Notes: generated from the letters alone by a model not told the origin. 19,718 nucleotides of DNA from Candidatus Heimdallarchaeota archaeon (GCA_048881705.1 JBHLSH010000073.1:1-19718); one strand, 5' to 3'; counted from the first letter of the stretch, positions 1,150 to 18,112 are shown. Translations and numbers: made by a program.

Positions 1150-1540
1150 TTGTATCATCTCATGATGGGAGGTGTGATACTCTCAATGGGAAAGAGCAGT
1201 TCTATTGTTAATTTTGCTCGTTAGGACAGTATAAACCAACCTGATGGACTAGAATGTCCATATCTGTCGTATAAGTAAGTCACTTTTATCGTGTGTCCTC
1301 AACTTATACTAGCATCTTGGGTGAAAAAACATCTGGAAATCATCCGATATATGAAGATAGTAGGGGGTTTATTTTCCATTGGCCTTCTCGGAAATTATCC
1401 CCATTTATGTTTCTTTTTTTCTCGTCTCGTTGTTCAAAAGTAATCCAAAACTAAAACATGGATCAAAGGAAGGAGTTGCCCCTAGCTGACAATCATTGAA
1501 AAGCACGGGATCTTACTGTTCATTAATTTTGAGTTTCCTA

Positions 1541-3517
1541 TTATTCATTTACTTTATCGGTACCATTTTCTTCCGTATCATCCACTTCTTGGTTTAGTGG
1601 GCGCATCCCCAGTGATACGAACTGCTCGACAACAGGTTGTATTTTAATGAAAGGTACGCCGTCAGTAGCAATAAGGCTGGCTACTAGCACCATATTCACC
1701 TGATCGAACTCATCACTACTGAGTCTCTTTTCCTGTAATAGAATCTGTGTGAACTGAGAAACCAAGGCGGGAAATTCAGGATCATCCAATGCTACTCTAT
1801 GTAGGATGGTTTTGATACTATTGATAAAAGATAATCCCAATTCTACAAACGTATTGGAAACCGGAATTTCAAAAAAATCGAGATTGAATAGAAGTTCGTC
1901 AACCTCTTCTTCCGTGGGATCATTGGGGGAAGTATGGATAGTGTTTTTGGCGAACCGTTCGAGGAGTACCAAGGCCCGTGCTTGAACAAACAAATTGTTA
2001 GTATTTCGAAGGATCTGCTTCACTGCGAGCCGCACATGATGATAATATTGTTCATCACATTGATCACCTAGATAGTTTAGAGCCTGGAGAATAGTGAGGA
2101 TTGCTCGACCATATAGCCGGATCTTGTTACGGCGGCCATGAAGAACATGTTGACGATAATCCTGGGAGAGTATCATGATTGAGAGCTGTAACAGTCTTTC
2201 GAATAGATGCCCAGAATGAAGCTTATCATCTCGAATTGATTCTTCTAAGGATTCTTCAAGTTCCGCAATCTCAGTCTTATCGATAGCATAGCTTTCCATC
2301 ATGGCATCAAGGGCTTCGATGTTCATTTGCTGGATACCCACGGACTCCACGGATATTTTATGTACGTACGCCGCCTTGAGAATCGGGCTCATCGCGAAAC
2401 CGCGTCGTTCCTCTTTTTTGTGGTAGATTTCTTCAATAAGCTCGGTCACTTTCGAAAGATGGTAGAAAGCAAAGTCTTCTCCTAAAAGATATTCCAATGC
2501 TAGGTTAAAGACCGCGCCGAACCATTTTAGATGAAATCCTCGTGAGTACGAAAAACTAGAAAGAAAGATGTTTTCAATATGATACAATTCCCGGGTTATT
2601 AAGGTCAACGTGGAGTAATAGTTCTCAAAGATAAAGTGCTTGAGCTCCCGTGCACTGGAATAATCCCTAGAGCTCGGATTAAGTACCATCTGGGGAAGCC
2701 ATGAGGGAATAAGTGATAATAGAAGATTAAAAGCCTTTGTGAATGATTCAAGGTCCTTTATGGTTACACGTCCTTTTTGAAACGAAGTGTCAAATTCGGG
2801 AATATCGATGGACGTACCAAAATGTAGATCTGCTTTGTAAAAATCAATCAACGCCTTCCCTAGACCACCCCCTCGTTTCATCATCTCTACATTAACATAA
2901 ATATCTTTAAGTGCATATAAGGCAAACTGGGAAATCGCTTTGAGGAAAGTAATGATTTCCTCTTTTTCGAATGATCCGGGAGGTACAATTCCTGCTAGTT
3001 GAGTGAAAAAATCTAACGAAAACACTAATGAATTACGTAAGCGTATTTCCATGCCCCGCTGTCGTTGAATGCTATGTAATATTTCGTGTAGAAGCAATCC
3101 ACGGAAACTGGAACGATTTTTTGCCTTTAGAAGACGCGAGGATTCCTCCAGTCGAACGAACACAAATTCTTTTTCTTTATAGCCGTAACTGAAACTACTT
3201 TGGAACGGTACGTGAAAAAAATCCACCAAATTTCCCATTTCTTCTGAGGGAAGACCGCTTTCAGTCTTAATGTATGAAATTACTTCTTCGATCTTTGTAA
3301 TATCTGAAAATACGATGACCATATCGGCGATTGAATCACAGAACTTCTTAATCATGGGGCTATTGAGAACTGCCATAACTGATTTTTCCATGGTTTTAAA
3401 AAAGTCCAGAAGTACAATTTTCGGAGAGCTGACTACTTCTTTCATTAGGCGTGCTTCCAGAAGATTTGCCTTTTTATGCGCTAAGCTTGGATGAAGAAAG
3501 CGGCGAGTTTCATCCAA
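1541..3517 (-). CDS. Hypothetical 658-aa soluble protein with an N-terminal zincin-like HExxH motif and a long helical C-terminal region
   Basis: Long ORF with a TTG start, co-oriented 86 bp downstream of secY. It contains GLLLHEILH (3074..3088) and a downstream ALKDIYVN helix. No clear TM segment. Confidence 0.8.
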   Translation of the reverse strand: MDETRRFLHPSLAHKKANLLEARLMKEVVSSPKIVLLDFFKTMEKSVMAVLNSPMIKKFCDSIADMVIVFSDITKIEEVISYIKTESGLPSEEMGNLVDFFHVPFQSSFSYGYKEKEFVFVRLEESSRLLKAKNRSSFRGLLLHEILHSIQRQRGMEIRLRNSLVFSLDFFTQLAGIVPPGSFEKEEIITFLKAISQFALYALKDIYVNVEMMKRGGGLGKALIDFYKADLHFGTSIDIPEFDTSFQKGRVTIKDLESFTKAFNLLLSLIPSWLPQMVLNPSSRDYSSARELKHFIFENYYSTLTLITRELYHIENIFLSSFSYSRGFHLKWFGAVFNLALEYLLGEDFAFYHLSKVTELIEEIYHKKEERRGFAMSPILKAAYVHKISVESVGIQQMNIEALDAMMESYAIDKTEIAELEESLEESIRDDKLHSGHLFERLLQLSIMILSQDYRQHVLHGRRNKIRLYGRAILTILQALNYLGDQCDEQYYHHVRLAVKQILRNTNNLFVQARALVLLERFAKNTIHTSPNDPTEEEVDELLFNLDFFEIPVSNTFVELGLSFINSIKTILHRVALDDPEFPALVSQFTQILLQEKRLSSDEFDQVNMVLVASLIATDGVPFIKIQPVVEQFVSLGMRPLNQEVDDTEENGTDKVNE

Positions 3518-3603
3518 TATGTAGTATTGATCCTACAATCCCGATCTGATGACAAAACATCTTGCTTCAAATAAAGAAGATGCTGGGCCCGTTACCATCG
3601 TAA

Positions 3604-5109
3604 TCAGAGCCCCAGGAATCCACGTAATGCGGGATTCATTTCTGCAACCCGCTCTTTACTGATAAGCTCAAAATATTGCCTCATAATTGATACAGACAAC
3701 AGGATACCCATCCCTGACCCAATAGCACCAAGGAAGTCAGCAAAAGCGGCAAGGCACCCAATAAAAATACCTCCTATCACCGTTATCGTGGGAATGTACA
3801 TTTCTAGGCGTCGTTCGATCCGTTTCTTGCTCTGCCGCCAACCTGGCATTTGCATCCCTGATTGTAGAAACTGTTGTGCCACATCACGTGGCCCCATCCC
3901 CGCAGTATCCAACCACATAACTGAGAACACTACGGACAGAAAGATCAAAACCAATGCATAGACTGCCGCCCTAATTATCGATGAAATCGGATCTGTAGGA
4001 TTAATAACCCCTAATTCCCCGACCAAGGATCTAGGTGGAGTTAAAAAATAGACCAAACCTGTTTCCGGAACATACTGCCCAGATACATTATCCGCTCTAA
4101 AAGTTCCTAGGAGAGAGGAGAGGAGGTCTGGTTGAGTTTGACCGCCGGCAGTGCTAGCATTCCAAAGGATTTGGGCAATGAAGTAGATGTCCGCAAAGAC
4201 TGCCGACGTTAGAATAACGGGGATATTAGAAACGTACAGCAACTTAATAGGATAAGTTGACCGAATCCCCTTATACTGGGTATACGCCACGGGAATCTCA
4301 ATCCGCATGGATTCAAAGTATATGACGATTATGAAGACTACAACCGTAGCAATGACCGAAAGAAGCGATAGGGAGGGGAGATTGAGAGCATTCGCAGGAT
4401 CATAACGGAAAAACAGGGCGCCGATTGCTGTTGGTATTCCTTCTGCGCTTACCCAGGCTAAGAAGGCTAATACAATTCCACGATTCGACAATACTTCTGT
4501 AGGCCCCTCTCGAACCGCCTGCACTGAAAATAATCCTGTGAAAATTTGTAAGCCTACACCACCTGCTATGAAAAGTGAGATTCCAGAACCTAAGCCCCAG
4601 CCTTTCTGCACCAGCTCATCCAACAAGATAATAATGATACCAGCAAACAGTAGTTGCCCGATGATGACCATTTGAACAGGTAAATCAAGGTTTTGCCCGT
4701 AACTTCCACCTATTAGGAATGCAACGGCTTCTATGATGGTCATAGCTACAGACATGACCTTTTGTGCACCTGTATAAAGAGAACGTTCCTCTGGATCGCC
4801 CATATTGACATTAATAATCTTACTTCCAACCAAAATCTGCATAATAAGCCCTGCAGTAACTATTGGGCCGATACCTAATTCGGCCAATGATCCTTGGGTT
4901 GAAGCGGTAATAGTTCGCATATAAGCGAATGGATCGCTCTCCCCAGGATTTGCAAGTAAAATGGGTGTAGACGCCATAACGAAATAGATAATCAAGGCTA
5001 CAAACGTCCAGGCCATTTTTTCATTAAAACGCACCTCACGAGTAGGTTTAACCACCTCAGGGGTTATGGACATAAAAGGACGGACCGCTTGCAGAAAACG
5101 AGATGTCAT
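3604..5109 (-). CDS. secY: Preprotein translocase subunit SecY/Sec61alpha
   Basis: Motifs GSLAELGIGPIVTAGLIMQIL, LDELVQKGWGLGSGISLFIAG, YPIKLLYVSNIPVIL and GSGMGILLSVSI; about 10 TM segments. SD GAGGT lies 7 nt before the ATG. Confidence 0.98.
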   Translation of the reverse strand: MTSRFLQAVRPFMSITPEVVKPTREVRFNEKMAWTFVALIIYFVMASTPILLANPGESDPFAYMRTITASTQGSLAELGIGPIVTAGLIMQILVGSKIINVNMGDPEERSLYTGAQKVMSVAMTIIEAVAFLIGGSYGQNLDLPVQMVIIGQLLFAGIIIILLDELVQKGWGLGSGISLFIAGGVGLQIFTGLFSVQAVREGPTEVLSNRGIVLAFLAWVSAEGIPTAIGALFFRYDPANALNLPSLSLLSVIATVVVFIIVIYFESMRIEIPVAYTQYKGIRSTYPIKLLYVSNIPVILTSAVFADIYFIAQILWNASTAGGQTQPDLLSSLLGTFRADNVSGQYVPETGLVYFLTPPRSLVGELGVINPTDPISSIIRAAVYALVLIFLSVVFSVMWLDTAGMGPRDVAQQFLQSGMQMPGWRQSKKRIERRLEMYIPTITVIGGIFIGCLAAFADFLGAIGSGMGILLSVSIMRQYFELISKERVAEMNPALRGFLGL

Positions 5110-5331
5110 TTGAGCTACCTCAGAGAGGAGTGAAGACCCGTAGCGATTTTCAGGTCTCCATATCCGTTGTAGGAGGGGGATTAGGGGTAGAAATTTATTT
5201 GTTTTCTTGCTATCCTCTTGTGCAAATAGTAGAAAAAGGACAAAATATTTTACCGCTGACAGAGCGGGATCGTTTTAGTCGAAATCTGGTGAATTCTGTA
5301 TCCAACAAGGATTTCAAAGGTGCTCAAGTAA

Positions 5332-7434
5332 ATGAAACAAATACGTAGGTTAGGCTACCAACTTTTTCTTGTAGGTGTCGTTTTTTCAAGCCTCTTTTTC
5401 GCATCAATTGCTGTGATTGCCTCTGGTAGGGTGATATCCCCTCAATCTTTGGATCACCAGGCAAGAATAGCGCCAAGCCCGACAAAACGAATTTCTCTGG
5501 AAGATCTGAACTTTTTTGATCCAGAAGACCTAACCAATACGAGTCACCAGGTCAATATCACCCGTACAATTGTGGCAAATCAATACGGGTATACAAGTGA
5601 GACCATCCGCATTGAAGTATCCAACAACGGGTTGAATCCGATAGATGCATTCAACCTCACTCTCCCCTTCGTGGAGTACAGCGATAATAGGTACCTCCGA
5701 GTTTTTTCGAGTAACGATACGGAGACCGAATACACGGAGTGGACCGAAATCGAAACGAATAATGATTCTGTTGTCTATGTGGTCGCTTTCCCAGAGATTG
5801 AACCTACTCACTCTTCAATCATCACGATTCAGATGGATCATCCTCATGCCGTCACCTATGACAAGGATATGCAGTTGGAAGAAGCTACGTTTCCATACTT
5901 CTTCAATCTTTCGTTCATTCCAATGATTTCCTTACCAATAACACGGTACCATGTTGATTGGTCCATAGGTAAGGATAAAACGGGAGCTGTGCTTCCGGTC
6001 TCCATAGATAATGAAACAATTACACCCGATCCATCGTCATTCACAGGAACTTTGACGAACGACCAGCAAGGAATTCGAATTGCGAACGTCACTGATTTAG
6101 CCACTATTGATAGAACCATATTGAACACAACTGAATATGGAAATTATAATCTAACTCGATTGGCGAACCTACCGTTTATTCCTGCCTATCAACCCAGATT
6201 GAAGGCCAATTTCACTGCCTATTATCTTTCATTTGATTATTCACAACAAGTCTATACTAGCATCGAATTTTCGTCTCTAACTACCAAGGTCATCGTCTCA
6301 GAATGGGGTTGGACAACCACGGTTCATGATATCGTAATCCGAAACATTGGAATCCAATCTGGATCAATATTGAAGACCGCGCTTGGCAGTAGCACGTTCC
6401 CATATATCGATTTCAATGTACCCGAGACTGCGCACAAAATTGGTTTCCGTGATAATTATGGCAACATTTCCATAGCATCCGCGTCAACAACTACCACAGG
6501 TAAAAAGATTGTCCAAATTAATCCGCGTGTTGAAATAGAAAAAGGTGAAATATATTACCTCCAAATGTCTTACCGCGAACGAACATCAGATATTGCTTCT
6601 GATCTCGGTAACGGCAGAATACAGCTTCATCTACCTCTGACGATCGCAAATAATTGGACCATAAGTCAATTCGAATTTAATTTGCTTCTACCTTTTGGAT
6701 CCACGTTCAACCTTGAAGATATGGTTAATTCGACCCAAAAACAGACTTTACGACACGTTCTTGCAAGTTCTACCGTTTCGGAAAGAGAATTTCTAGGATT
6801 GTTCAATCGTGTTGGAATTCATTTAATGTACCAGGAATTGACACCATTAAGCATTCGCTACGTTGATTTCATTGCAGGTCTTGCACCGGTGTACCCCTTC
6901 TATCAACCTCTCTCAATTTTCCTTTTCTTGCTCATACTTGGAATCGCTTACATTCTTGTTCGAAACATCTCATTTGGAATAAAACCCAGACGCGTATTAC
7001 TTGAAGAAATACCCCTAGATCTGATTAGGAATTTTGTCAAGAATTACGAAGAAAAAACAGCTGTCAGAGCTCAAATCTTGCGACTAGATAATAGACGCAA
7101 AACCAAGAAAATTTCGGCCCGCGAGTACGAAAAAACCCGGGCTCTTCTGAATAATCGGATGGAACAAGCCGATCGTTCCATTGTCAGTGTGTCACGGAAA
7201 TTGGCTGGCGAAAGTCGACGCTATCGAGTTGCTATGAGGACAATTGAAGTTGCAGAAGCCAGTCGTGAGGATATTTTGCTCAATATTGATTCGCTTGAGC
7301 GCAAAAAGACCCAGGGACGCATTGGAAAAGAAGCTTATGCGAAATTAAAACTCAGTTACGATAAGCAACTTCAAAGTGCGAACAATGAGATAGATAAAGT
7401 CTTAATTGAACTTCGAGCCTTGCTTACAGGGTGA
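5332..7434 (+). CDS. Ribophorin I (Ost1/RPN1)-like type I membrane protein, an OST accessory subunit homolog
   Basis: Architecture: signal peptide, beta-rich ectodomain, one TM, helical cytosolic tail. Collinear motifs match RPN1 as recalled: VNITRTI (EDVKRTVDL), VIVSEWG (IEVSHWG), PETAHKIGFRDNYGNIS...INPRVEI (PAAAQDVYYRDEIGNVS...IRPRFPL), YQPLSIF...LVRNISFGI (LQEPLLV...YVRLDFSI). Confidence 0.82.
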   Translation: MKQIRRLGYQLFLVGVVFSSLFFASIAVIASGRVISPQSLDHQARIAPSPTKRISLEDLNFFDPEDLTNTSHQVNITRTIVANQYGYTSETIRIEVSNNGLNPIDAFNLTLPFVEYSDNRYLRVFSSNDTETEYTEWTEIETNNDSVVYVVAFPEIEPTHSSIITIQMDHPHAVTYDKDMQLEEATFPYFFNLSFIPMISLPITRYHVDWSIGKDKTGAVLPVSIDNETITPDPSSFTGTLTNDQQGIRIANVTDLATIDRTILNTTEYGNYNLTRLANLPFIPAYQPRLKANFTAYYLSFDYSQQVYTSIEFSSLTTKVIVSEWGWTTTVHDIVIRNIGIQSGSILKTALGSSTFPYIDFNVPETAHKIGFRDNYGNISIASASTTTTGKKIVQINPRVEIEKGEIYYLQMSYRERTSDIASDLGNGRIQLHLPLTIANNWTISQFEFNLLLPFGSTFNLEDMVNSTQKQTLRHVLASSTVSEREFLGLFNRVGIHLMYQELTPLSIRYVDFIAGLAPVYPFYQPLSIFLFLLILGIAYILVRNISFGIKPRRVLLEEIPLDLIRNFVKNYEEKTAVRAQILRLDNRRKTKKISAREYEKTRALLNNRMEQADRSIVSVSRKLAGESRRYRVAMRTIEVAEASREDILLNIDSLERKKTQGRIGKEAYAKLKLSYDKQLQSANNEIDKVLIELRALLTG

Positions 7435-7439
7435 TTTGA

Positions 7440-7691
7440 ATGTTAGTTGCTCAGGAAAGCAACCTAAAAATGGTTCCAGCCATCGTAATAGAGCATCATT
7501 TGTGCACTCGCTGCAGTAAATGTATTAAGAGTTGTCCCGCAGATATTCTTGTTCGAGAAAAATCGAAAGCAAACACCTACAAATTTGATATTGAAGTAAC
7601 AGATGCGGGTCTTTGTTTCGAATGTCGAGCCTGTGAAGTTGTTTGCCCAGAGGACTGCATCCATATATTATGTATTACGCAAGCCCCGTAG
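7440..7691 (+). CDS. 2x[4Fe-4S] ferredoxin
   Basis: Two CxxCxxCxxxCP motifs: CTRCSKCIKSCP and CFECRACEVVCP. Starts 5 nt after the ribophorin stop. Confidence 0.9.
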   Translation: MLVAQESNLKMVPAIVIEHHLCTRCSKCIKSCPADILVREKSKANTYKFDIEVTDAGLCFECRACEVVCPEDCIHILCITQAP

Positions 7692-7818
7692 TGTAGCGGT
7701 CCATTATCGAGGAATTTAATCCTCGTGAGCCCATATCATGCGAGGTTTTGGTCTAGAATCGTAACTGGCGATTCTGGGAAGATTCCTCGTGACCCCAGTT
7801 CGAATCTGGGCGGGGCTA
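7682..7818 (+). tRNA. tRNA-Gln(TTG) with two introns: D-loop (about 7703..7734) and canonical 37/38 (7752..7783)
   Basis: Acceptor AGCCCCG/CGGGGCT with the A1-U72 pair typical of archaeal Gln; T arm CCCAG-TTCGAAT-CTGGG; anticodon stem CGAGG/CCTCG with TT-TTG-G. The 37/38 intron forms a full bulge-helix-bulge. The D-loop carries an extra 30-32 nt hairpin. Confidence 0.9.
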
Positions 7819-7846
7819 TCAATCTTTCAAGATTTTGTGCTTGTGT

Positions 7847-8128
7847 CTACTTGGATCCCGACAGGTTGAATGGTTTTCCCTCTTCCAAAATTGAAGAGGG
7901 AATCTGAACCCGGTATTTACGGAGAAACTCTAAATCCTCCGCCTCTTTTCGTAGATCATCAGGGAGCATAACTGGAATAGTTTTTCTAATAGGATAATAT
8001 CGTTTACATTTTCCGCAATGGATAAGGCCGGATTCCACTTCTAAATCGCTGCTTTCAAACACTAAAAGCTCTAACTCGGGGTTCTTACACATCGGACAGG
8101 CCAAGATCTCCATTAATTCTCTTTTCAT
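7847..8128 (-). CDS. trm112: Trm112-family methyltransferase activator
   Basis: MKRELMEILACPMCK...GLIHCGKCKRYYPI...IPVMLPDDLR zinc-ribbon signature, plus a short C-terminal extension. Confidence 0.93.
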   Translation of the reverse strand: MKRELMEILACPMCKNPELELLVFESSDLEVESGLIHCGKCKRYYPIRKTIPVMLPDDLRKEAEDLEFLRKYRVQIPSSILEEGKPFNLSGSK

Positions 8129-8133
8129 AATAT

Positions 8134-8204
8134 CACTTCAGACGGCTCTTCACACATTCATCGTTGTCTGGACAACTCTGCCGGGGATAACATCATCATC
8201 AGCG
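8134..8204 (-). ncRNA. Box C/D 2'-O-methylation guide sRNA with two guides to 23S rRNA domain V
   Basis: Minus strand reads: stem CGCT, G, C box ATGATGA (8199-8193), guide TGTTATCCCCGG, D' CAGA, hairpin GTTGT-CCAG-ACAAC, C'-like ACGATGA, guide ATGTGTGAAGAGCCGT, D box CTGA (8141-8138), stem AGTG. The guides complement the conserved LSU rRNA sequences CCGGGGAUAACA and CGGCUCUUC. Confidence 0.88.
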
Positions 8205-8293
8205 ACTTTTTACAGGAATGGGGATTGACGGATTCTTCGATACGAATATGCAGAAGCTGCCTTCTACTGTAATAGCGATGTATACAAGGAAGA

Positions 8294-8614
8294 TTAATAG
8301 GTCACTGGATATATTATTATTAGAACTAATAGAGCGAGGATACTTACAGAACAGATTATAAACCATTCACGATAATATTTTCTTTTCTCGGTCTGGTTAA
8401 TACTTTTTGATAGCTGAATACGAAAATTCCATGTGAACAATACGATCAGGGCTGTTAGAAAGATAAGCATGACGTGTTGAATGGTTCGATCAAGGAATCC
8501 CAAATATAAGACAATTGCTGCGGCCAATATTATGATAGAACCCAAAATTGATAAGTCTAGAAGCTTCACAGACTTAGGAAGTTCAGACCAGCGTTTGACA
8601 TCGCTAGTAGTCAC
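8294..8614 (-). CDS. Small 3-TM membrane protein, candidate DAD1/Ost2 (OST subunit) homolog
   Basis: GTG start with a perfect AGGAGG SD 8 nt upstream; three hydrophobic segments. PxxVKLLD and FRIQL occur at nearly the DAD1 spacing. The CDS is well supported; the family call is tentative. Confidence 0.6.
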   Translation of the reverse strand: MTTSDVKRWSELPKSVKLLDLSILGSIIILAAAIVLYLGFLDRTIQHVMLIFLTALIVLFTWNFRIQLSKSINQTEKRKYYREWFIICSVSILALLVLIIIYPVTY

Positions 8615-8662
8615 GTGTGTGTCCTCCTGACGCTTTTTTCTCTTAGCAAGTGCTGGAACGAA

Positions 8663-8725
8663 CTAGAGATTATAAAAACCTGTCCTGCAAAAGCTGAAAG
8701 AAAGAGTGGCTAGAGATTATTAAAT
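8663..8725. promoter_or_regulatory. Two imperfect direct repeats CTAGAGATTAT(A/T)AAA with TATA-like cores in a divergent intergenic region
   Basis: CTAGAGATTATAAAA at 8663..8677 and CTAGAGATTATTAAA at 8710..8724, between the divergent 3-TM gene and the arcE-like gene. Confidence 0.35.
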
Positions 8726-8770
8726 CCCGTCTCTTTCCTCACAAACCGCAAATTAAAGGTTTGAGATGAA

Positions 8771-10090
8771 TTGGCACACATTAAAACGGTAATCATGGGC
8801 GCCGCAGGCCGAGATTTCCATAATTTCAACACTTATTTTCGTGAAAACGACAGATATGAGGTTATCGCCTTCACAGCGACTCAAATCCCTGACATCGAAG
8901 GAAGGGTATATCCCTCAGAGCTAGCAGGGTCATTGTATCCCCGTGGGATCCCAATTTACGCCGAAGAAAAGCTTCCTGAATTGATTCGCGAGCATAATGT
9001 GGATCAGGTCATACTATCATATTCAGATATTTCTCATATCCAAGTAATGCAGATTGCTTCTCGAGTTATCGCCCTAGGAGCCGATTTTAGGATGATGGGG
9101 ACCTATCATACATGTCTTCGTGCAAACAGGCCTGTTATCGCGGTATGTGCCGTAAGAACGGGCGCCGGTAAGAGTCAAGTAAGTCGAAAATTGGGTCAAA
9201 TCCTGCGAGAATACGGGAAAAAGGTGGCTGTGGTCCGTCATCCCATGCCCTATGGTAATCTAAGTGATCAAATTTGGCAGCGTTTCGGAGATTTAGAGGA
9301 TCTAGATAAACATAACTGCACTATAGAGGAGAGAGAAGAATATTTTCCCCACATTGTTGCAGGAAATTTGGTTTTTGCAGGAGTAGATTATGCCAGGATT
9401 TTGAAAGAAGCTGAAAAAGAAGCTGATATCATTCTTTGGGATGGCGGAAACAATGATTTTCCGTTCTATTCTCCCGATTTATGGATAACCGTAACTGATC
9501 CACACCGGCTAGGTCATGAAACAACGTACTATCCTGGACATACCAATCTGTTGGCATGTGACATCGTTATTATCAATAAAGTGGATACCGCAAACATTGA
9601 GGATGTCGAAACATTAACGAGAACGATCCAATCAGAAAATCCAAGTGCCAAAATAATTAAGGCAAGAAGCCCTATAATAGTCGAAAGTCCAGATATTGTT
9701 GAAAATAAACGCGTTTTGGTCATTGAAGATGGACCAACGTTAACTCACGGAGACATGAGATTTGGTGCTGGTATTGTAGCGGCGCAAAAATATAGGGCCT
9801 CGGAAATCATTGATCCTAGACCTTTCGCCGTTCGTTCCATCAGAGAAACTTTCGCAAAGTATAAACACTTGAACCAGGTCCTGCCAGCCATGGGATATGG
9901 GGATGAACAGATTAAGGATCTTGAAGAAACTGTAAACTCTGCTGATGCTGATACGGTTATAATTGGAACTCCAATAGATCTCAGAAGGTTAATCACGATG
10001 AATAAACCTGCCACTCGTGTCACATATGCGATGGACGATGAAAGCGCCAAGGCTCTTACTGAAATCTTGAAAAATATGAATCTAATCTGA
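8771..10090 (+). CDS. Arginine synthetase (ArcE)-like / cyclic 2,3-diphosphoglycerate synthetase-family P-loop NTPase
   Basis: Motifs IMGAAGRDFHNFN, AFTATQIP, AVRTGAGKS (P-loop), RHPMPYG, CTIEEREEY, WDGGNND, EDGPTLTHG and LPAMGYG. TTG start after GAGATGA. Confidence 0.8.
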   Translation: MAHIKTVIMGAAGRDFHNFNTYFRENDRYEVIAFTATQIPDIEGRVYPSELAGSLYPRGIPIYAEEKLPELIREHNVDQVILSYSDISHIQVMQIASRVIALGADFRMMGTYHTCLRANRPVIAVCAVRTGAGKSQVSRKLGQILREYGKKVAVVRHPMPYGNLSDQIWQRFGDLEDLDKHNCTIEEREEYFPHIVAGNLVFAGVDYARILKEAEKEADIILWDGGNNDFPFYSPDLWITVTDPHRLGHETTYYPGHTNLLACDIVIINKVDTANIEDVETLTRTIQSENPSAKIIKARSPIIVESPDIVENKRVLVIEDGPTLTHGDMRFGAGIVAAQKYRASEIIDPRPFAVRSIRETFAKYKHLNQVLPAMGYGDEQIKDLEETVNSADADTVIIGTPIDLRRLITMNKPATRVTYAMDDESAKALTEILKNMNLI

Positions 10091-10166
10091 AGTTTGGGGC
10101 GATGGGAAATTGGAACCTAGCGACAGTAGTAACAGCATGTTTTAAGCCACACAAGACGCTTATTTG

Positions 10167-10562
10167 TTAATATTGCTCCTGTGTACTCACAGCAACCATG
10201 TAGAGTCCAATAATCGCGAGAAGAGCGCTTCCTGCCGCCGCTAGAATCCCTATTATTGGTGCTGTCTCATTTATGATGAACCAGGCCACCAGGATAAGAG
10301 CCGCACCCAAACCCAAACCACCGATGATGGTGGCGTTATTTCCCTCACCGTACCCGTAACTTTCCCGAGAACCGTATCCCATACCAAGTCCACCAATTAT
10401 TCCTGCAATCCAGACCAAAAATAGTTCAAAATAAGCTGGATTCCCGACTATGGTAGGATCGAGAATTGGCATTTGTAATGCTGGAATGAGTACAACCAAA
10501 AAACTCACCGCAAAGATTAAAGTACCAATAAAAGTCGGAGTTCTTACCATTTTTCTTACCAT
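10167..10562 (-). CDS. Hypothetical 4-TM, Gly-rich small membrane protein
   Basis: 131-aa ORF with four hydrophobic stretches separated by short loops; no confident family. Confidence 0.75.
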   Translation of the reverse strand: MVRKMVRTPTFIGTLIFAVSFLVVLIPALQMPILDPTIVGNPAYFELFLVWIAGIIGGLGMGYGSRESYGYGEGNNATIIGGLGLGAALILVAWFIINETAPIIGILAAAGSALLAIIGLYMVAVSTQEQY

Positions 10563-10878
10563 CTAACCCTTTAATTGTGAAAATATAGTTAGCTTGAATC
10601 TGAAAGATTACCTTTTATCATTTTTCATGATCACACAACTAAAACACGCAGATAATTAGAATGACTCTAAAAAACCAGCTTTTCTCATTTATCATCAATT
10701 TGTATTGATTTTGTTCTGGACCATAATAAATTCACAACTAGTGTTCCTCAAACAACAAAATATCGGGATTCAGTTTATTAAACCGCCTTTCATGGATCCA
10801 TCGGAAATCTTAAGGAATGGTCTTAATTAACATTGATCGGCCTTAGTTTTAGAATAATCGTTGAATGGAACCGCTAAA

Positions 10879-11835
10879 ATGAAAATATTAGTGACTGGAA
10901 TTGCAGGTTTTATTGGATCTCATTTAGCAGAGCGGTTAGGGGATTTAGGATATGAAGTCGTAGGGATAGACTGTTTTACTGATTATTATTCCCGAGAACT
11001 AAAGCAATTGAATATGGAAAAGATCAAGAGCTACGATATTCCGGTTTATAATTTCGATCTTGCAAAGGACGGTCTAAAATCAGCATTACAAGGGGTTGAC
11101 GTCATATATCACCTGGCCGCTCAACCAGGAATTTCTATCTCGACCCCGTTTGAAGAATATGTAAAGAATAATATCATTGCCACCAAAAATCTGGTAGATT
11201 CGTGCAGAAACCTTTCTTCACTAAATTGTTTTGTCAATATTTCAACTTCATCGGTATATGGAGCGCATGCAACAGATCCTGAGGATGCAGCACCTAAACC
11301 TACTTCATTTTATGGTGTTACAAAGTTGTGTGCAGAGCAATTAGTTCTTGCTTACCATCGCGAATATGGATTCCCTGCATGTTCCCTGCGTATTTTTTCT
11401 GTGTATGGGCCACGTGAAAGGCCTGAAAAGCTGTTTCCTAAGATCATCTTGAGTATATTGAACAACACCTCATTTCCTCTCTATGAAGGGAGTGAAACCC
11501 ATTCTCGAAGCTATACTTACGTCGAGGATATAATACATGGATTGATCTCCGTATTAAACCACAAGGACAAAGCGATCGGGGAAATTTTCAATCTGGGCTC
11601 GCCAGTTGAAGTTACTACTGGAGAAACAATAAAGATTGTTGAACAAATCATGGGGAAGGAAGCACAAAAAGATGTCCTTCCGAAAAGGCCTGGGGATCAG
11701 ATTCGAACTTGGGCAAATATCAATAAAGCACGTTCAATTCTCGGTTTTGAACCACAAACTCGAATTGAAGACGGATTAAAACTAGAAATAGATTGGTTTC
11801 GAGAAATCTATGAAAAAAACATCCTATATGAATAA
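10879..11835 (+). CDS. NAD-dependent nucleotide-sugar epimerase/dehydratase (extended SDR, UDP-glucuronate 4-epimerase/WcaG-like)
   Basis: MKILVTGIAGFIG (GxxGxxG), HLAAQPG, STSSVYG, catalytic YGVTK (YxxxK), LRIFSVYGP. The ATG at 10879 is preferred over the TTG at 10861. Confidence 0.93.
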   Translation: MKILVTGIAGFIGSHLAERLGDLGYEVVGIDCFTDYYSRELKQLNMEKIKSYDIPVYNFDLAKDGLKSALQGVDVIYHLAAQPGISISTPFEEYVKNNIIATKNLVDSCRNLSSLNCFVNISTSSVYGAHATDPEDAAPKPTSFYGVTKLCAEQLVLAYHREYGFPACSLRIFSVYGPRERPEKLFPKIILSILNNTSFPLYEGSETHSRSYTYVEDIIHGLISVLNHKDKAIGEIFNLGSPVEVTTGETIKIVEQIMGKEAQKDVLPKRPGDQIRTWANINKARSILGFEPQTRIEDGLKLEIDWFREIYEKNILYE

Positions 11836-11866
11836 TTATCTCCTTCTCATGTGTCAAAGTTACGCT

Positions 11867-11872
11867 AAAAAA
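11867..11872 (-). terminator. Oligo-T tract directly after the tRNA-Val 3' end
   Basis: T6 on the minus strand abuts the discriminator; consistent with archaeal oligo-U termination of the eL32..uL15-tRNA unit. Confidence 0.4.
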
Positions 11873-11946
11873 TGGGCCGGCCCAGATTTGAACTGGGGAC
11901 CTCCTGCGTGTCAGGCAGACGTCATACCGGGCTAGACCACCGGCCC
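11873..11946 (-). tRNA. tRNA-Val(GAC)
   Basis: Acceptor GGGCCGG/CCGGCCC; anticodon arm TCTGC-CT-GAC-AC-GCAGG; T arm CCCAG-TTCAAAT-CTGGG; no intron. Confidence 0.96.
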
Positions 11947-11977
11947 GAATCATTTTCAAAGAACTTAATGAGGGCGA

Positions 11978-12421
11978 TTACCCTTCTGTATCTTTTGTAA
12001 AAATCTTACCGCCAACAGCTTCTATTTTTGTTTGGGCCCTGGATGTGATTTTAGAGGTATAAAGATGGATGGGAGTGTTGACTCGACCAGAACCAAGGAC
12101 TTTCGAATATCCCAGTTGAGTTACATCTACCTTGATCGCTTGTCCGTCCTTAACAGCCTGATTCGAAGATAGCCAGCTTTCAAGCTGTTCTTCTATGATT
12201 CCCACATTGATCGTTCGGGACGGAAGCCTTTTTGGAGGAGAAAATCCTTTTTGGCTTTCGATGATAGCAGAAATTTTACCAATGCGGTGATGGCCCTTGC
12301 TACCTGCTTTACCAACTCCACCACGAGACCCGCTTTTCCTATGGCCTCCTGATACTCGCCCATATCCATAGGTTCGGCTGCCACGCTGTTTTTTTATCTT
12401 CTTTGACCGTCTGGTTGTCAT
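11978..12421 (-). CDS. rpl15: 50S ribosomal protein uL15
   Basis: RGSRTYGYGRVSGGHRKSGSRGGVGKAG, INVG, GYSKVLGSG, AQTKIEAVGG. An upstream ATG at 12433 overlaps the uL30 stop (TAATG). Confidence 0.96.
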   Translation of the reverse strand: MTTRRSKKIKKQRGSRTYGYGRVSGGHRKSGSRGGVGKAGSKGHHRIGKISAIIESQKGFSPPKRLPSRTINVGIIEEQLESWLSSNQAVKDGQAIKVDVTQLGYSKVLGSGRVNTPIHLYTSKITSRAQTKIEAVGGKIFTKDTEG

Positions 12422-15639: not shown

Positions 15640-16602
15640 TTGACTCCTGCTGATATTGCGGGGCTCACAATAGCTGGAGTGGATGGCGGATATGTTTCAC
15701 GAAGGTTCATTGGGTTTGACATCTTTCTTTTCAGAGCGGTTGCTGTTTTTTCTAGCTATACTCCCACGGGTATCCAAAAAACTACCTATTACCCCGCCAA
15801 AACCCCGCCATTTGAAACTGCGGTCTCGGAAGTGGGATTATCTGTCATTGACGCTGAACAATACGGAACAATAAGACGAGCAATTACAGAGATTCAAGTT
15901 GCCCTTCAAGTTCTGGAGGTAAGCCCAAAAAAGGTAGATATCCTCCTTTTAGATGGAAGCCCAGTCATAAAAAAACCTTTAACAGGAAATCAGAAAATCT
16001 TACGTTACTATCAAACCTATCTAAATCATCTCGCTAGGCTTGTATCCCAAACAAGAGAAGATCGGATTCGATTGGCCTGGATTGTGAAGGACAGTCGGTT
16101 AAATCTTCTCACCAAATTTCTTGGACGAATTCTCCCCTTCTTAAGTGAGGAGATACCCGAGATGCTGGCAATTGATTATCGCAGCATAATTAACAGAAGT
16201 AGAGATATGGATTTATTTTTCTATTTATTAGAACCAAATGCACGGAGTCTGGTATATCACTACCCCTTCCAATTACCTATTGATTCGGGCCTGGATTTAG
16301 CACTCTATGTTTATTACCTGAAAACGGCACCATACGACATTCCGCTTAGGATTGAGTTATTCCAATCCATCCCTCTGAAATCCCTAGCCAATGTAAATGA
16401 AGTGAATATTCTCTCTGAGGCGATCTTGCCTATTTCTCAATACAATCGGGAATATGGGATTCCTGCACCCATAGTTGAGGCCGATGCACGGGCAAGAATA
16501 AAAGAAACCGAAGTCGATGCTCTGTTTCGGTCGATCCACAAAAAACATCCCACGCCAGATTTGTGGTTCCCTCGTCGAGAAAGAACTCCTTGGAGATTTT
16601 AA
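15640..16602 (+). CDS. nurA: NurA-family 5'-3' nuclease (RNase H-like fold); the real start probably lies upstream
   Basis: Acidic motifs IAGVDGG, LLLDGS, IVKDSR and C-terminal YGIPAPIVEAD; immediately upstream of herA. The reading frame is open from 15427. Confidence 0.85.
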   Translation: MTPADIAGLTIAGVDGGYVSRRFIGFDIFLFRAVAVFSSYTPTGIQKTTYYPAKTPPFETAVSEVGLSVIDAEQYGTIRRAITEIQVALQVLEVSPKKVDILLLDGSPVIKKPLTGNQKILRYYQTYLNHLARLVSQTREDRIRLAWIVKDSRLNLLTKFLGRILPFLSEEIPEMLAIDYRSIINRSRDMDLFFYLLEPNARSLVYHYPFQLPIDSGLDLALYVYYLKTAPYDIPLRIELFQSIPLKSLANVNEVNILSEAILPISQYNREYGIPAPIVEADARARIKETEVDALFRSIHKKHPTPDLWFPRRERTPWRF

Positions 16603-16636
16603 CCTTGAAATTATTCGATAATGAGGCTGAATACAT

Positions 16637-18112
16637 ATGACCCTACTTGGAACGGTAATCTCAACGAAAGACTCTCCTAACCTGGATAAAATTGAGTTCA
16701 TTATTAATGAAAATAATGTCCAGCCATATGCAGAACGAGGACAGTTTGTTACTCTTCGTAAAGGCCAAAATCTGGAAATCCTAGGCCAAATTACTGGAAT
16801 CAAGAAATATAATGCGTATTACGCGAACTTCGACTTTAATATCCAAGAACTAGCCTCTCGGGAATTCGATGCTATCTTTCCAACGAATGAATGGGAAAGT
16901 ACGGTTGCTGAACTAAAACCATTGGGTGAACTAAATAAGAACAGTGGAAAAATTAGGCGGCTCAAATTTCCTGTGTCTCCTGGTTCGAAAGTATATACGG
17001 CAGATCCAGCCATAATTTCGATGTTCCTTGGATTTGATGATAATGGCCTTTTTTGGGGGGAAATCCCGGCAAATAATGTAAAAGTACAACCCAATCTTTC
17101 GCGTTTGTTAAGAAAGCATCTTGCAATCCTCGCTATTTCAGGGGCGGGAAAATCTTACGCCACAACGGTTTTGCTCGAAGAGCTCTATCACTATGGAAAG
17201 ATGGGAGTTCTCGTCGTTGATCCACATGGTGAATATACCGCTGTCCTTCCTGAAATGGATGGAAGTGAACGAATGCCTGAAGTTATTAAAGGTTCATTTA
17301 TTTCAATTGGCGTTCCCGAACTTTCAGCATGGGATATTTCCGAATTCATACCCGATATGACTGTAGTTCAGACTCGTGTATTAGACAGCCTGATTGCGGA
17401 ATTGCGAAAACAAAAAGCTCTTTATGGTCTGCAAGACCTCATCCGTGTTACTGAGCAGTCTGAAACTATCAATACTCGCACCAAGGATGCATTAATCGGG
17501 TGGCTGCATTCTTTAGATCGAACATACCTATTTTCGGTACAAACCAACCCCATCATGGATCAAATGATTAGGCCAGGAAAGATAACGATTCTCGATTTAT
17601 CGGAGATTCGAAATCTTCGGAGTAGGTCCATCATTGTCCTACACTTTCTGAAAGGATTGTACTATCAGCGTATTCGGAATAAAATCCCGCCATCGGTGTT
17701 TGTGATTGAAGAAGCGCATCAATTCTGTCCCCAAAACCAAAGATCTGTCTCAAAACGGATTATCGAGACCATCGCTCGTGAGGGACGAAAATTCTATGTT
17801 TCGCTTTGTCTTATTTCCCAACGACCAGTGAATTTATCGGTAACGGCACTCTCCCAATGTAATTCGAATCTGATACTTCGAATCAGAAATCCATACGATC
17901 TCGATTTCATTGGTCGGACTTCTGAAGGAATCGATAGAGCGGCATTGAAGGTACTCCCCGATTTAGAAATTGGTGAAGCCTTATTGGTAGGTGAAGGAGT
18001 CAATTATCCTGTATTTTTCCGTGTGAGAGCCAGACGACTTCGAGCTAATAATTCTAATTCCGATTTAGAATCGGTTGCTGAAAGCTGGTCTAGCAATAAT
18101 TCAGAGAAGTAA
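16637..18112 (+). CDS. herA: HerA-family (FtsK/HerA) ATPase/helicase
   Basis: N-terminal HAS-barrel-like region; HLAILAISGAGKS (Walker A), VVDPHGEY, VIEEAHQF (Walker B), IAREGRKF (arginine finger), LISQRP. Confidence 0.93.
   Translation: MTLLGTVISTKDSPNLDKIEFIINENNVQPYAERGQFVTLRKGQNLEILGQITGIKKYNAYYANFDFNIQELASREFDAIFPTNEWESTVAELKPLGELNKNSGKIRRLKFPVSPGSKVYTADPAIISMFLGFDDNGLFWGEIPANNVKVQPNLSRLLRKHLAILAISGAGKSYATTVLLEELYHYGKMGVLVVDPHGEYTAVLPEMDGSERMPEVIKGSFISIGVPELSAWDISEFIPDMTVVQTRVLDSLIAELRKQKALYGLQDLIRVTEQSETINTRTKDALIGWLHSLDRTYLFSVQTNPIMDQMIRPGKITILDLSEIRNLRSRSIIVLHFLKGLYYQRIRNKIPPSVFVIEEAHQFCPQNQRSVSKRIIETIAREGRKFYVSLCLISQRPVNLSVTALSQCNSNLILRIRNPYDLDFIGRTSEGIDRAALKVLPDLEIGEALLVGEGVNYPVFFRVRARRLRANNSNSDLESVAESWSSNNSEK

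Follow-up and report, generated by a model that had tools for sequence, protein, structure and literature searches.

The DNA stretch analysed here, referred to as the window, comprises 19,718 bp and represents the entire contig C73 (JBHLSH010000073.1) of genome bin G000 (3.96 Mb, 91% complete, 7.5% contamination), which originates from a member of the Hodarchaeales within the Heimdallarchaeia (Asgard archaea). Between positions 3604 and 10562 the window harbors secY, a gene for a homolog of the oligosaccharyltransferase (OST) subunit Ost1/ribophorin I, and a small gene that probably specifies a homolog of the subunit Ost2/DAD1. In most other genomes of the same genus, this gene block also includes a gene for a protein resembling the subunit Wbp1/OST48. 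Taken as a whole, the locus is likely to encode non-catalytic subunits of a eukaryote-like multi-subunit OST. The genes of the block are arranged in the window as follows.

3604-5109, minus strand: secY, 501 amino acids (Pfam, NCBIfam).
5110-5331: intergenic region of 222 bp from which secY and ost1 diverge.
5332-7434, plus strand: Ost1/ribophorin I homolog, 700 amino acids (PF04597).
7440-7691, plus strand: 2x[4Fe-4S] ferredoxin, 83 amino acids (Pfam Fer4 families, E ~3e-8).
7847-8128, minus strand: Trm112, a methyltransferase activator (Pfam Trm112p, E 1e-10; NCBIfam Trm112_arch, E 8e-20).
8294-8614, minus strand: probable Ost2/DAD1 homolog, 106 amino acids, three transmembrane segments (remote homology).
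8771-10090, plus strand: P-loop protein related to cyclic 2,3-diphosphoglycerate synthetase (cDPGS), 439 amino acids.
10167-10562, minus strand: tm131, a membrane protein without family assignment, 131 amino acids, four transmembrane segments.

The translocon gene met the curated thresholds of both databases. The product of 3604-5109 reached 219.5 bits with the Pfam SecY model (cut-off 32.2; E 8.8e-65) and 401.8 bits with the NCBIfam SecY equivalog (cut-off 300), and a plug of the Sec61 type was recognized (Plug_translocon, 29.7 bits, cut-off 22.1). This gene is the main secY copy and specifies a translocon pore of the Sec61alpha type, in agreement with the first-pass annotation of the window. 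A second SecY paralog, 40% identical to the SecY of the window over 474 amino acids, was found on contig C8 (12497-13990, minus strand). It was not assigned to any family by hmmscan against Pfam and was likewise missed when the genome was searched with the Pfam SecY model. It is co-directional with genes for a membrane protein resembling winged helix-turn-helix/MarR proteins (11634-12344, minus strand) and for a second copy of the catalytic OST subunit STT3 (9413-11584, minus strand). The adjacency of this paralog to STT3 looks recent, since the closest relative, G001, possesses the paralog but only one STT3 gene, which is located on another contig. An open reading frame for 81 amino acids at 5103-5348 was considered as a small membrane subunit and rejected, as it contains no transmembrane segment and was matched only in G001, a 91-94% identical relative, with no match in more distant congeners. 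It belongs to no Pfam family and is probably not a gene.

The 700-amino-acid protein encoded divergently from secY matched PF04597 with 46.5 bits (cut-off 25; E 3.6e-12) over residues 314-543, and this part of the earlier annotation, an Ost1/RPN1 homolog next to the translocon gene, was confirmed as well. Two hydrophobic segments are present, residues 7-36, which could act as an N-terminal signal or anchor, and residues ~520-551, a single transmembrane helix. The C-terminal part (residues 558-698) matched 8WHN, the cytosolic domain of OST1 from Prometheoarchaeum MK-D1, with an E value of 1.1e-7. The MK-D1 domain pulls down ribosomes (PMC11417166). The homolog in the window is predicted from these matches to retain the cytosolic helical ribosome-binding domain within a type I architecture. 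Homologs of Ost1 were present in 40 of 41 relatives; within the genus they are 46-52% identical, compared to ~80% for SecY. The ferredoxin gene starts 5 bp after ost1 and is probably co-transcribed with it.

According to the first-pass annotation, the catalytic STT3/AglB is absent from the window and should be looked for elsewhere in the genome, together with Wbp1-like and OST3/6-like genes. All three were detected on other contigs. STT3/AglB is represented by two paralogs, 82% identical to each other, on contigs C90 (STT3a) and C8; in both, the N-terminal domain of STT3 is combined with the STT3-PglB core domain. On C90, STT3a, a Cdc6/Orc1 gene, and a gene resembling a DNA polymerase small subunit are neighbours (3566-4822, plus strand; 4877-6448 and 6620-8785, minus strand), and because of these neighbours STT3a may lie near a replication origin.

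The Wbp1/OST48-like gene is located on contig C86 (3630-4913, minus strand) and specifies a protein of 427 amino acids with a signal peptide and a single C-terminal transmembrane segment. Its match to OST48_N, 26.6 bits, remained below the cut-off of 36. With its profile, mammalian OST48 was detected with an E value of 4e-5 over residues 93-287, yet the GIFT domains of IFT52 scored better (E 1e-9). The same contig contains a gene for an OST3/OSTC(DC2)-like protein (1316-1777, plus strand) of 153 amino acids with three transmembrane segments, which matched PF04756 with an E value of 2.5e-5; some of its homologs carry a precomputed PF04756 assignment. Two genes between the OSTC-like and Wbp1-like genes resemble ribosomal S10 and S7 by eye, and the stretch of C86 that includes the Wbp1-like gene is the counterpart of what borders the OST block on its left side in congeners. 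Swp1/RPN2 was not detected in the genome with Pfam models; Ost4 was not searched for. The Wbp1-like protein contains 12 N-X-S/T sequons, and 14 are found in the ectodomain of the Ost1 homolog, where shuffled sequences contained 6.0 +/- 2.1 and only one of 2000 shuffles reached the observed number. Judged by this content, both putative subunits of OST would be N-glycosylated in their own right.

Comparison of the loci within the genus revealed a well-defined arrangement. secY and ost1 are divergent, head-to-head neighbours in 20 of the 21 genus genomes having both genes, and the order tm131, cDPGS-like P-loop protein, Ost2-like protein, Trm112, ferredoxin, Ost1, SecY is kept. The Ost2-like gene follows ~0.9 kb beyond ost1 in the window. 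In most congeners the Wbp1-like gene, 1-1.5 kb beyond tm131, completes a block of ~10 kb, and it is separated from the Ost2-like gene by 3-4 kb in at least 16 of them. It is far from Ost1 only in the genome analysed here, in G001, and in G007; in the first of these it has been relocated from the block to contig C86. The presence of a third OST-related gene within the same ~10 kb in most congeners strengthens the idea of a neighbourhood for accessory OST subunits. Other components are found at larger distances. In six congeners, 35-38 kb separate STT3 from Ost1, and the OSTC-like gene is some 30-48 genes away, as counted by locus tags.

The competing explanation that survives best accepts the gene identities and regards their co-location as an inherited accident of one genus, in a housekeeping-rich region with ribosomal operons. 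Its chance of being correct is put not far below even, and several observations weigh in its favor. The intact block was found only in the genus designated g1 and not across independent lineages. In families f3 to f5, none of the window genes and no Wbp1-like, OSTC-like or Ost5-like genes were matched in the loci around Ost1 or the Ost2-like gene; in the sampled loci of the remaining Heimdallarchaeia families, neither SecY within 9 kb of Ost1 nor an Ost2-like gene near it was found. Fragments of the arrangement are seen in the sister family, Ost1 with ferredoxin in G022, and tm131 with Ost1 as well as the Ost2-like gene with Trm112 in G023. Even within the genus the block is broken in four genomes, namely G006, G021, and, by displacement of the Wbp1-like gene, G000 and G001. 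Since the strands alternate and the unrelated genes for Trm112, ferredoxin, and the cDPGS-like protein are interleaved, the block is not an operon. The Ost2-like and Trm112 genes, which are on the same strand, may be co-transcribed. Ribosomal protein genes flank the block, and the contig with STT3a also carries Cdc6/Orc1. In view of the mixed strands, the unrelated genes and the housekeeping-rich surroundings, these genes may have come to lie together for historical and not for functional reasons.

An accident is less easily reconciled with three homologs of one eukaryotic complex and the translocon pore lying within ~10 kb of a genome of 4-5 Mb, and with the retention of this block while Ost1 diverged to the extent given above. 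Furthermore, in G006 the Wbp1-like gene is still located beside the Ost2-like gene though Ost1 is 62 kb away, and the two corresponding proteins are part of one subcomplex in eukaryotes. This arrangement characterizes a single genus, and as evidence for functional coupling it is at most weak. Conservation of the neighbourhood, which had been proposed as a check, holds for SecY and Ost1 within the genus and does not extend to the loci examined from f3 to f5. What stands of the accessory neighbourhood suggested in the first-pass annotation is SecY and Ost1, both firmly identified, the Ost2-like protein as a probable member, and, in congeners, the Wbp1-like protein; no support was obtained for an Ost5-like protein or for the epimerase gene as a conserved member of the block.

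The assignment of the 106-amino-acid protein to Ost2/DAD1 is based on several lines of evidence. In the AlphaFold2 (AF2) model, with a predicted local distance difference test (pLDDT) value of 78, helices are formed by residues 3-10, 14-39, 45-70, and 74-101, corresponding to an N-terminal helix followed by three transmembrane segments. The homologs are ~50% identical across the genus with a conservation pattern typical of proteins; W9, K-L-L-D, Y37, D42, W62, R65, E-W, and a C-terminal YPVTY are invariant among these homologs. In an exhaustive search of 1.84 billion representatives with a hidden Markov model, the family comprised 28 clusters, nearly all of 97-125 amino acids. It is confined to the Heimdallarchaeia, where it occurs in four of the seven families of the class (f1-f4).

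Sequence profiles of increasing breadth were compared to the PDB. The narrow profile of nine sequences yielded no match at E <= 10. With 31 sequences, yeast OST2 was the only hit among all PDB sequences (E 0.0076; runner-up E 1.4), and with 41 sequences, including 113-amino-acid homologs from other Heimdallarchaeia families, the match to yeast OST2 improved to an E value of 0.00083 (22.5 bits). It was the sole match below E 0.5 among 177,635 PDB sequences, with a 600-fold lead over the runner-up. The alignment is co-linear and near full length, profile positions 12-97 against Ost2 residues 39-126, and places K-L-(L/I)-D, a conserved Asn before the second transmembrane segment, L-R-L-x-L, and E-(W/F) in register with the yeast protein. 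In Foldseek searches with the model, yeast Ost2 and human DAD1 were the top matches among 350,542 chains (probability 0.82-0.89, TM-score 0.65). With a second structural aligner, VIA, Ost2/DAD1 chains from six entries occupied ranks 1, 2, 3, 5, 6, and 11 (Z 10.3-8.6), with 98-100 of the 106 residues aligned at a root mean square deviation of 3.1-3.5 Å.

The protein could instead be a lineage-specific protein with three transmembrane segments, in which the likeness to Ost2 merely mirrors generic features of small helical membrane proteins. Several results point in this direction and weigh against the assignment. No match to Pfam DAD (PF02109) was obtained at E <= 1, neither for this protein nor elsewhere in the genome, and among 83 genomes of the class none has a match above the cut-off. 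More members of the 106-amino-acid family match DAD than any other Pfam family, but these are 5 of 41, all sub-threshold with E values of 0.006-0.1. Human DAD1 was not retrieved from the PDB sequences by the family profiles. Unrelated three-helix bundles reached VIA Z scores of 8-9.5 with the model, close to those of the Ost2/DAD1 chains. Searches by shape in the ESM Atlas yielded no DAD cluster and listed unrelated families with three transmembrane segments whose TM-scores were comparable, and the language-model neighbours in the Atlas, generic small membrane proteins, were uninformative. Taken alone, the evidence from the modelled structure is weak. A co-folding prediction of STT3a, residues 290-427 of the Wbp1-like protein, and the 106-amino-acid protein scored 0.73, and two partner swaps 0.00 each; a control with swapped STT3 still reached 0.55, and the result counts neither way. 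The best matches to Pfam DAD in the class (G033, G025, and G039; E 6e-4 to 0.02) were also considered as Ost2 candidates. The only one inspected, that of G033, is a segment of a 437-amino-acid multi-pass membrane protein and was regarded as spurious.

It is difficult to attribute to generic features that yeast OST2 is the only protein detected by sequence in the PDB, and that this match became stronger with the broader profile and includes several conserved motifs in register. Length and topology equal those of Ost2/DAD1, the same proteins were first in both structural aligners, and its gene occurs together with those for Ost1 and the Wbp1-like protein. A lineage-specific protein unrelated to Ost2 is therefore unlikely. 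When its sequence and fold are considered along with its size, its distribution, and the genes around it, the 106-amino-acid protein is most likely a true homolog of Ost2/DAD1. The DAD1/Ost2-like protein with three transmembrane segments postulated in the first-pass annotation is supported by the profile match to yeast OST2 and the top fold matches, while PF02109, suggested for its detection, stays below threshold.

An Ost5/TMEM258-like membrane protein had also been proposed for the locus. The only other small membrane protein gene is tm131 (10167-10562), whose AF2 model consists of four transmembrane helices (pLDDT 91.7). Ost5/TMEM258 is a hairpin of two transmembrane segments. tm131 matched no Pfam family, including Ost5 (PF05251), and no PDB sequence; no OST chain appeared in its Foldseek list, and its Atlas neighbours were uninformative. 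The best VIA hit was an unrelated protein (Z 7.9), and DC2 (5.9) and MAGT1 (5.5) were at noise level. Comparison with the OST3/OSTC-like family of the genome by hhalign gave a probability of 0.5%, equal to the negative control. With neither Pfam nor PDB matches and structures at noise level, tm131 was rejected as Ost5, OST3/DC2, Swp1, KCP2, and TRAP-gamma. The claim of an Ost5-like protein in the locus is unsupported, because tm131 has four instead of two transmembrane segments and no OST match, and because a better candidate is found on contig C79. This best Ost5 candidate of the genome (7654-8148, plus strand; 164 amino acids) matched PF05251 with an E value of 7.3e-5 and 25.1 bits, the cut-off being 27.4. 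Its signal peptide is followed by a linker rich in Thr and by a C-terminal region with two transmembrane segments corresponding to PF05251 positions 2-67. Judged by eye, its neighbours are a gene of 609 codons resembling GlmS and a gene with multiple transmembrane segments resembling a UbiA-type prenyltransferase.

tm131 could nevertheless be an extra OST or translocon subunit specific to the Hodarchaeales, for example at the membrane position of Swp1 or OST3/DC2. Throughout the genus its gene has the Wbp1-like gene on one side and the Ost2-like gene on the other, in G023 it directly precedes Ost1, the model is a confident bundle of four transmembrane helices with weak likeness to DC2 and the transmembrane domain of MAGT1, and Swp1 is not detectable by Pfam in the genome. 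The family is ~50% identical across the genus with a protein-like conservation pattern. This role is improbable, since tm131 resembles no OST subunit by sequence or profile and its structural scores are within noise, since the family is confined to the two families of one order (19 of 21 genomes in f1, both in f2) and would not be an ancestral subunit, since a distant homolog, P0163, has genes for proteasome, YdjM, MoCF, and the CCA-adding enzyme and no OST genes as neighbours, and since products of neighbouring genes alone seldom bind.

The flanks of the block contain the following additional genes.

1158-189, minus strand: ribosomal protein genes S8-L6, after secY and the gene for a 658-amino-acid protein.
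1541-3517, minus strand: soluble protein of 658 amino acids, directly downstream of secY.
10861-11835, plus strand: nucleotide-sugar epimerase/dehydratase, NAD-dependent, short-chain dehydrogenase/reductase (SDR) type, 324 amino acids (Pfam Epimerase, E 1.3e-50; GDP_Man_Dehyd, E 1.3e-52).
15331-11978, minus strand: ribosomal protein genes L32e-L19e-L18-S5-L30-L15, on the same strand as secY.
15640-18112, plus strand: NurA-HerA nuclease-helicase pair, beyond the ribosomal protein cluster.

A triose-phosphate isomerase gene is present with NurA-HerA at the right end of the contig. The ribosomal genes constitute a rearranged spc-type cluster. The OST-related block of 6.9 kb splits L15 from secY, and S8-L6 are located after secY and not before L32e; in congeners, secY has the opposite orientation with respect to the L15 cluster. 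The 658-amino-acid protein had no match in Pfam, NCBIfam, or the PDB, and its gene is kept beside secY only in G001 and G021 among the loci examined. The epimerase gene, described before as adjacent to the locus, is genuine. It abuts tm131, together with the L15 operon, only in G000 and G001, and for this reason it was placed outside the conserved block. Residues 210-301 of the P-loop protein matched PDB entry 9sxb (E 1.7e-8), and its matches to Pfam cobW and CbiA were weak; to our knowledge, no link between cDPGS-like proteins and OST has been described. With ARAGORN and with Rfam at gathering thresholds, tRNA genes were called at 1-76, 82-175, and 11873-11946 only; the gaps at 7682-7818 and 8134-8204 yielded no RNA gene in these searches, which atypical archaeal RNAs could escape.

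If the locus encodes non-catalytic subunits of a multi-subunit OST, the Ost1, Ost2-like, and Wbp1-like proteins would join STT3/AglB encoded elsewhere, along with the OST3/OSTC-like and Ost5-like proteins. Going by eukaryotic structures and the data in PMC11417166, the assembled set would give rise, at the cell membrane, to a eukaryote-like oligosaccharyltransferase that Ost1 could dock on the ribosome-SecY translocon for co-translational N-glycosylation. A more far-reaching proposal, that secY and the genes for the Ost1, Ost2-like, and Wbp1-like proteins are kept together for one ribosome-docked translocon-OST supercomplex with tm131 as an unrecognised subunit, e.g. in the Swp1 slot, appears doubtful at best.

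These genes touch on an open point in eukaryogenesis, namely whether a translocon-coupled multi-subunit OST already existed in archaeal ancestors before eukaryotes arose. What the locus adds is an Ost2/DAD1-like family that is well conserved and has a definite genomic setting; it also reveals a Hodarchaeales genus in which secY is accompanied by ost1, the Ost2-like gene, and, in most cases, the Wbp1-like gene. Together with tm131 they represent a defined gene set for the study of a complex, the formation of which is not implied by the locus itself. Ost1 from Asgard archaea was reportedly published in 2017. According to Eme 2023 (PMC10307638), Ost1 is found across Asgard archaea, Ost2, Wbp1, and Swp1 are restricted to Heimdallarchaeia, and Ost5 occurs in most classes; Ost4 from Asgard archaea was published there as well. 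The link of Asgard Ost1 to translocon and ribosome was tested experimentally (Carilo 2024, PMC11417166). The distribution of Ost2 given in PMC10307638 agrees with that of the 106-amino-acid family. A description of the SecY-Ost1-Ost2-like(-Wbp1-like) neighbourhood was not found in the accessible texts and supplements of PMC10307638 and PMC11417166, which does not prove that it is unreported. As the subunit homologs themselves have been published, the gene block is a useful but modest addition.

Among known systems, the eukaryotic OST on Sec61 is the closest counterpart (yeast 6EZN/6C26; human OST-A/B 6S7O/6S7T; translocon 8B6L). Like eukaryotes, the genome analysed here encodes an Ost1/RPN1 homolog, a probable Ost2/DAD1, Wbp1/OST48-like, OST3/OSTC-like, and Ost5-like proteins, STT3, and SecY. 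While the eukaryotic complex is located in the endoplasmic reticulum, the cell membrane would serve in this archaeon; the Ost2-like protein has diverged beyond the reach of the Pfam DAD model, and the genes, which are dispersed in eukaryotes, are in part clustered here. With the archaeal spc operon ending in secY, the window shares the L32e-L19e-L18-S5-L30-L15 cluster on the secY strand and differs by the insert between L15 and secY and by the position of S8-L6. The domains common to both STT3/AglB paralogs are those of single-subunit AglB, but whereas typical archaea with AglB only lack accessory subunits, this genome encodes several accessory homologs of the eukaryotic type.

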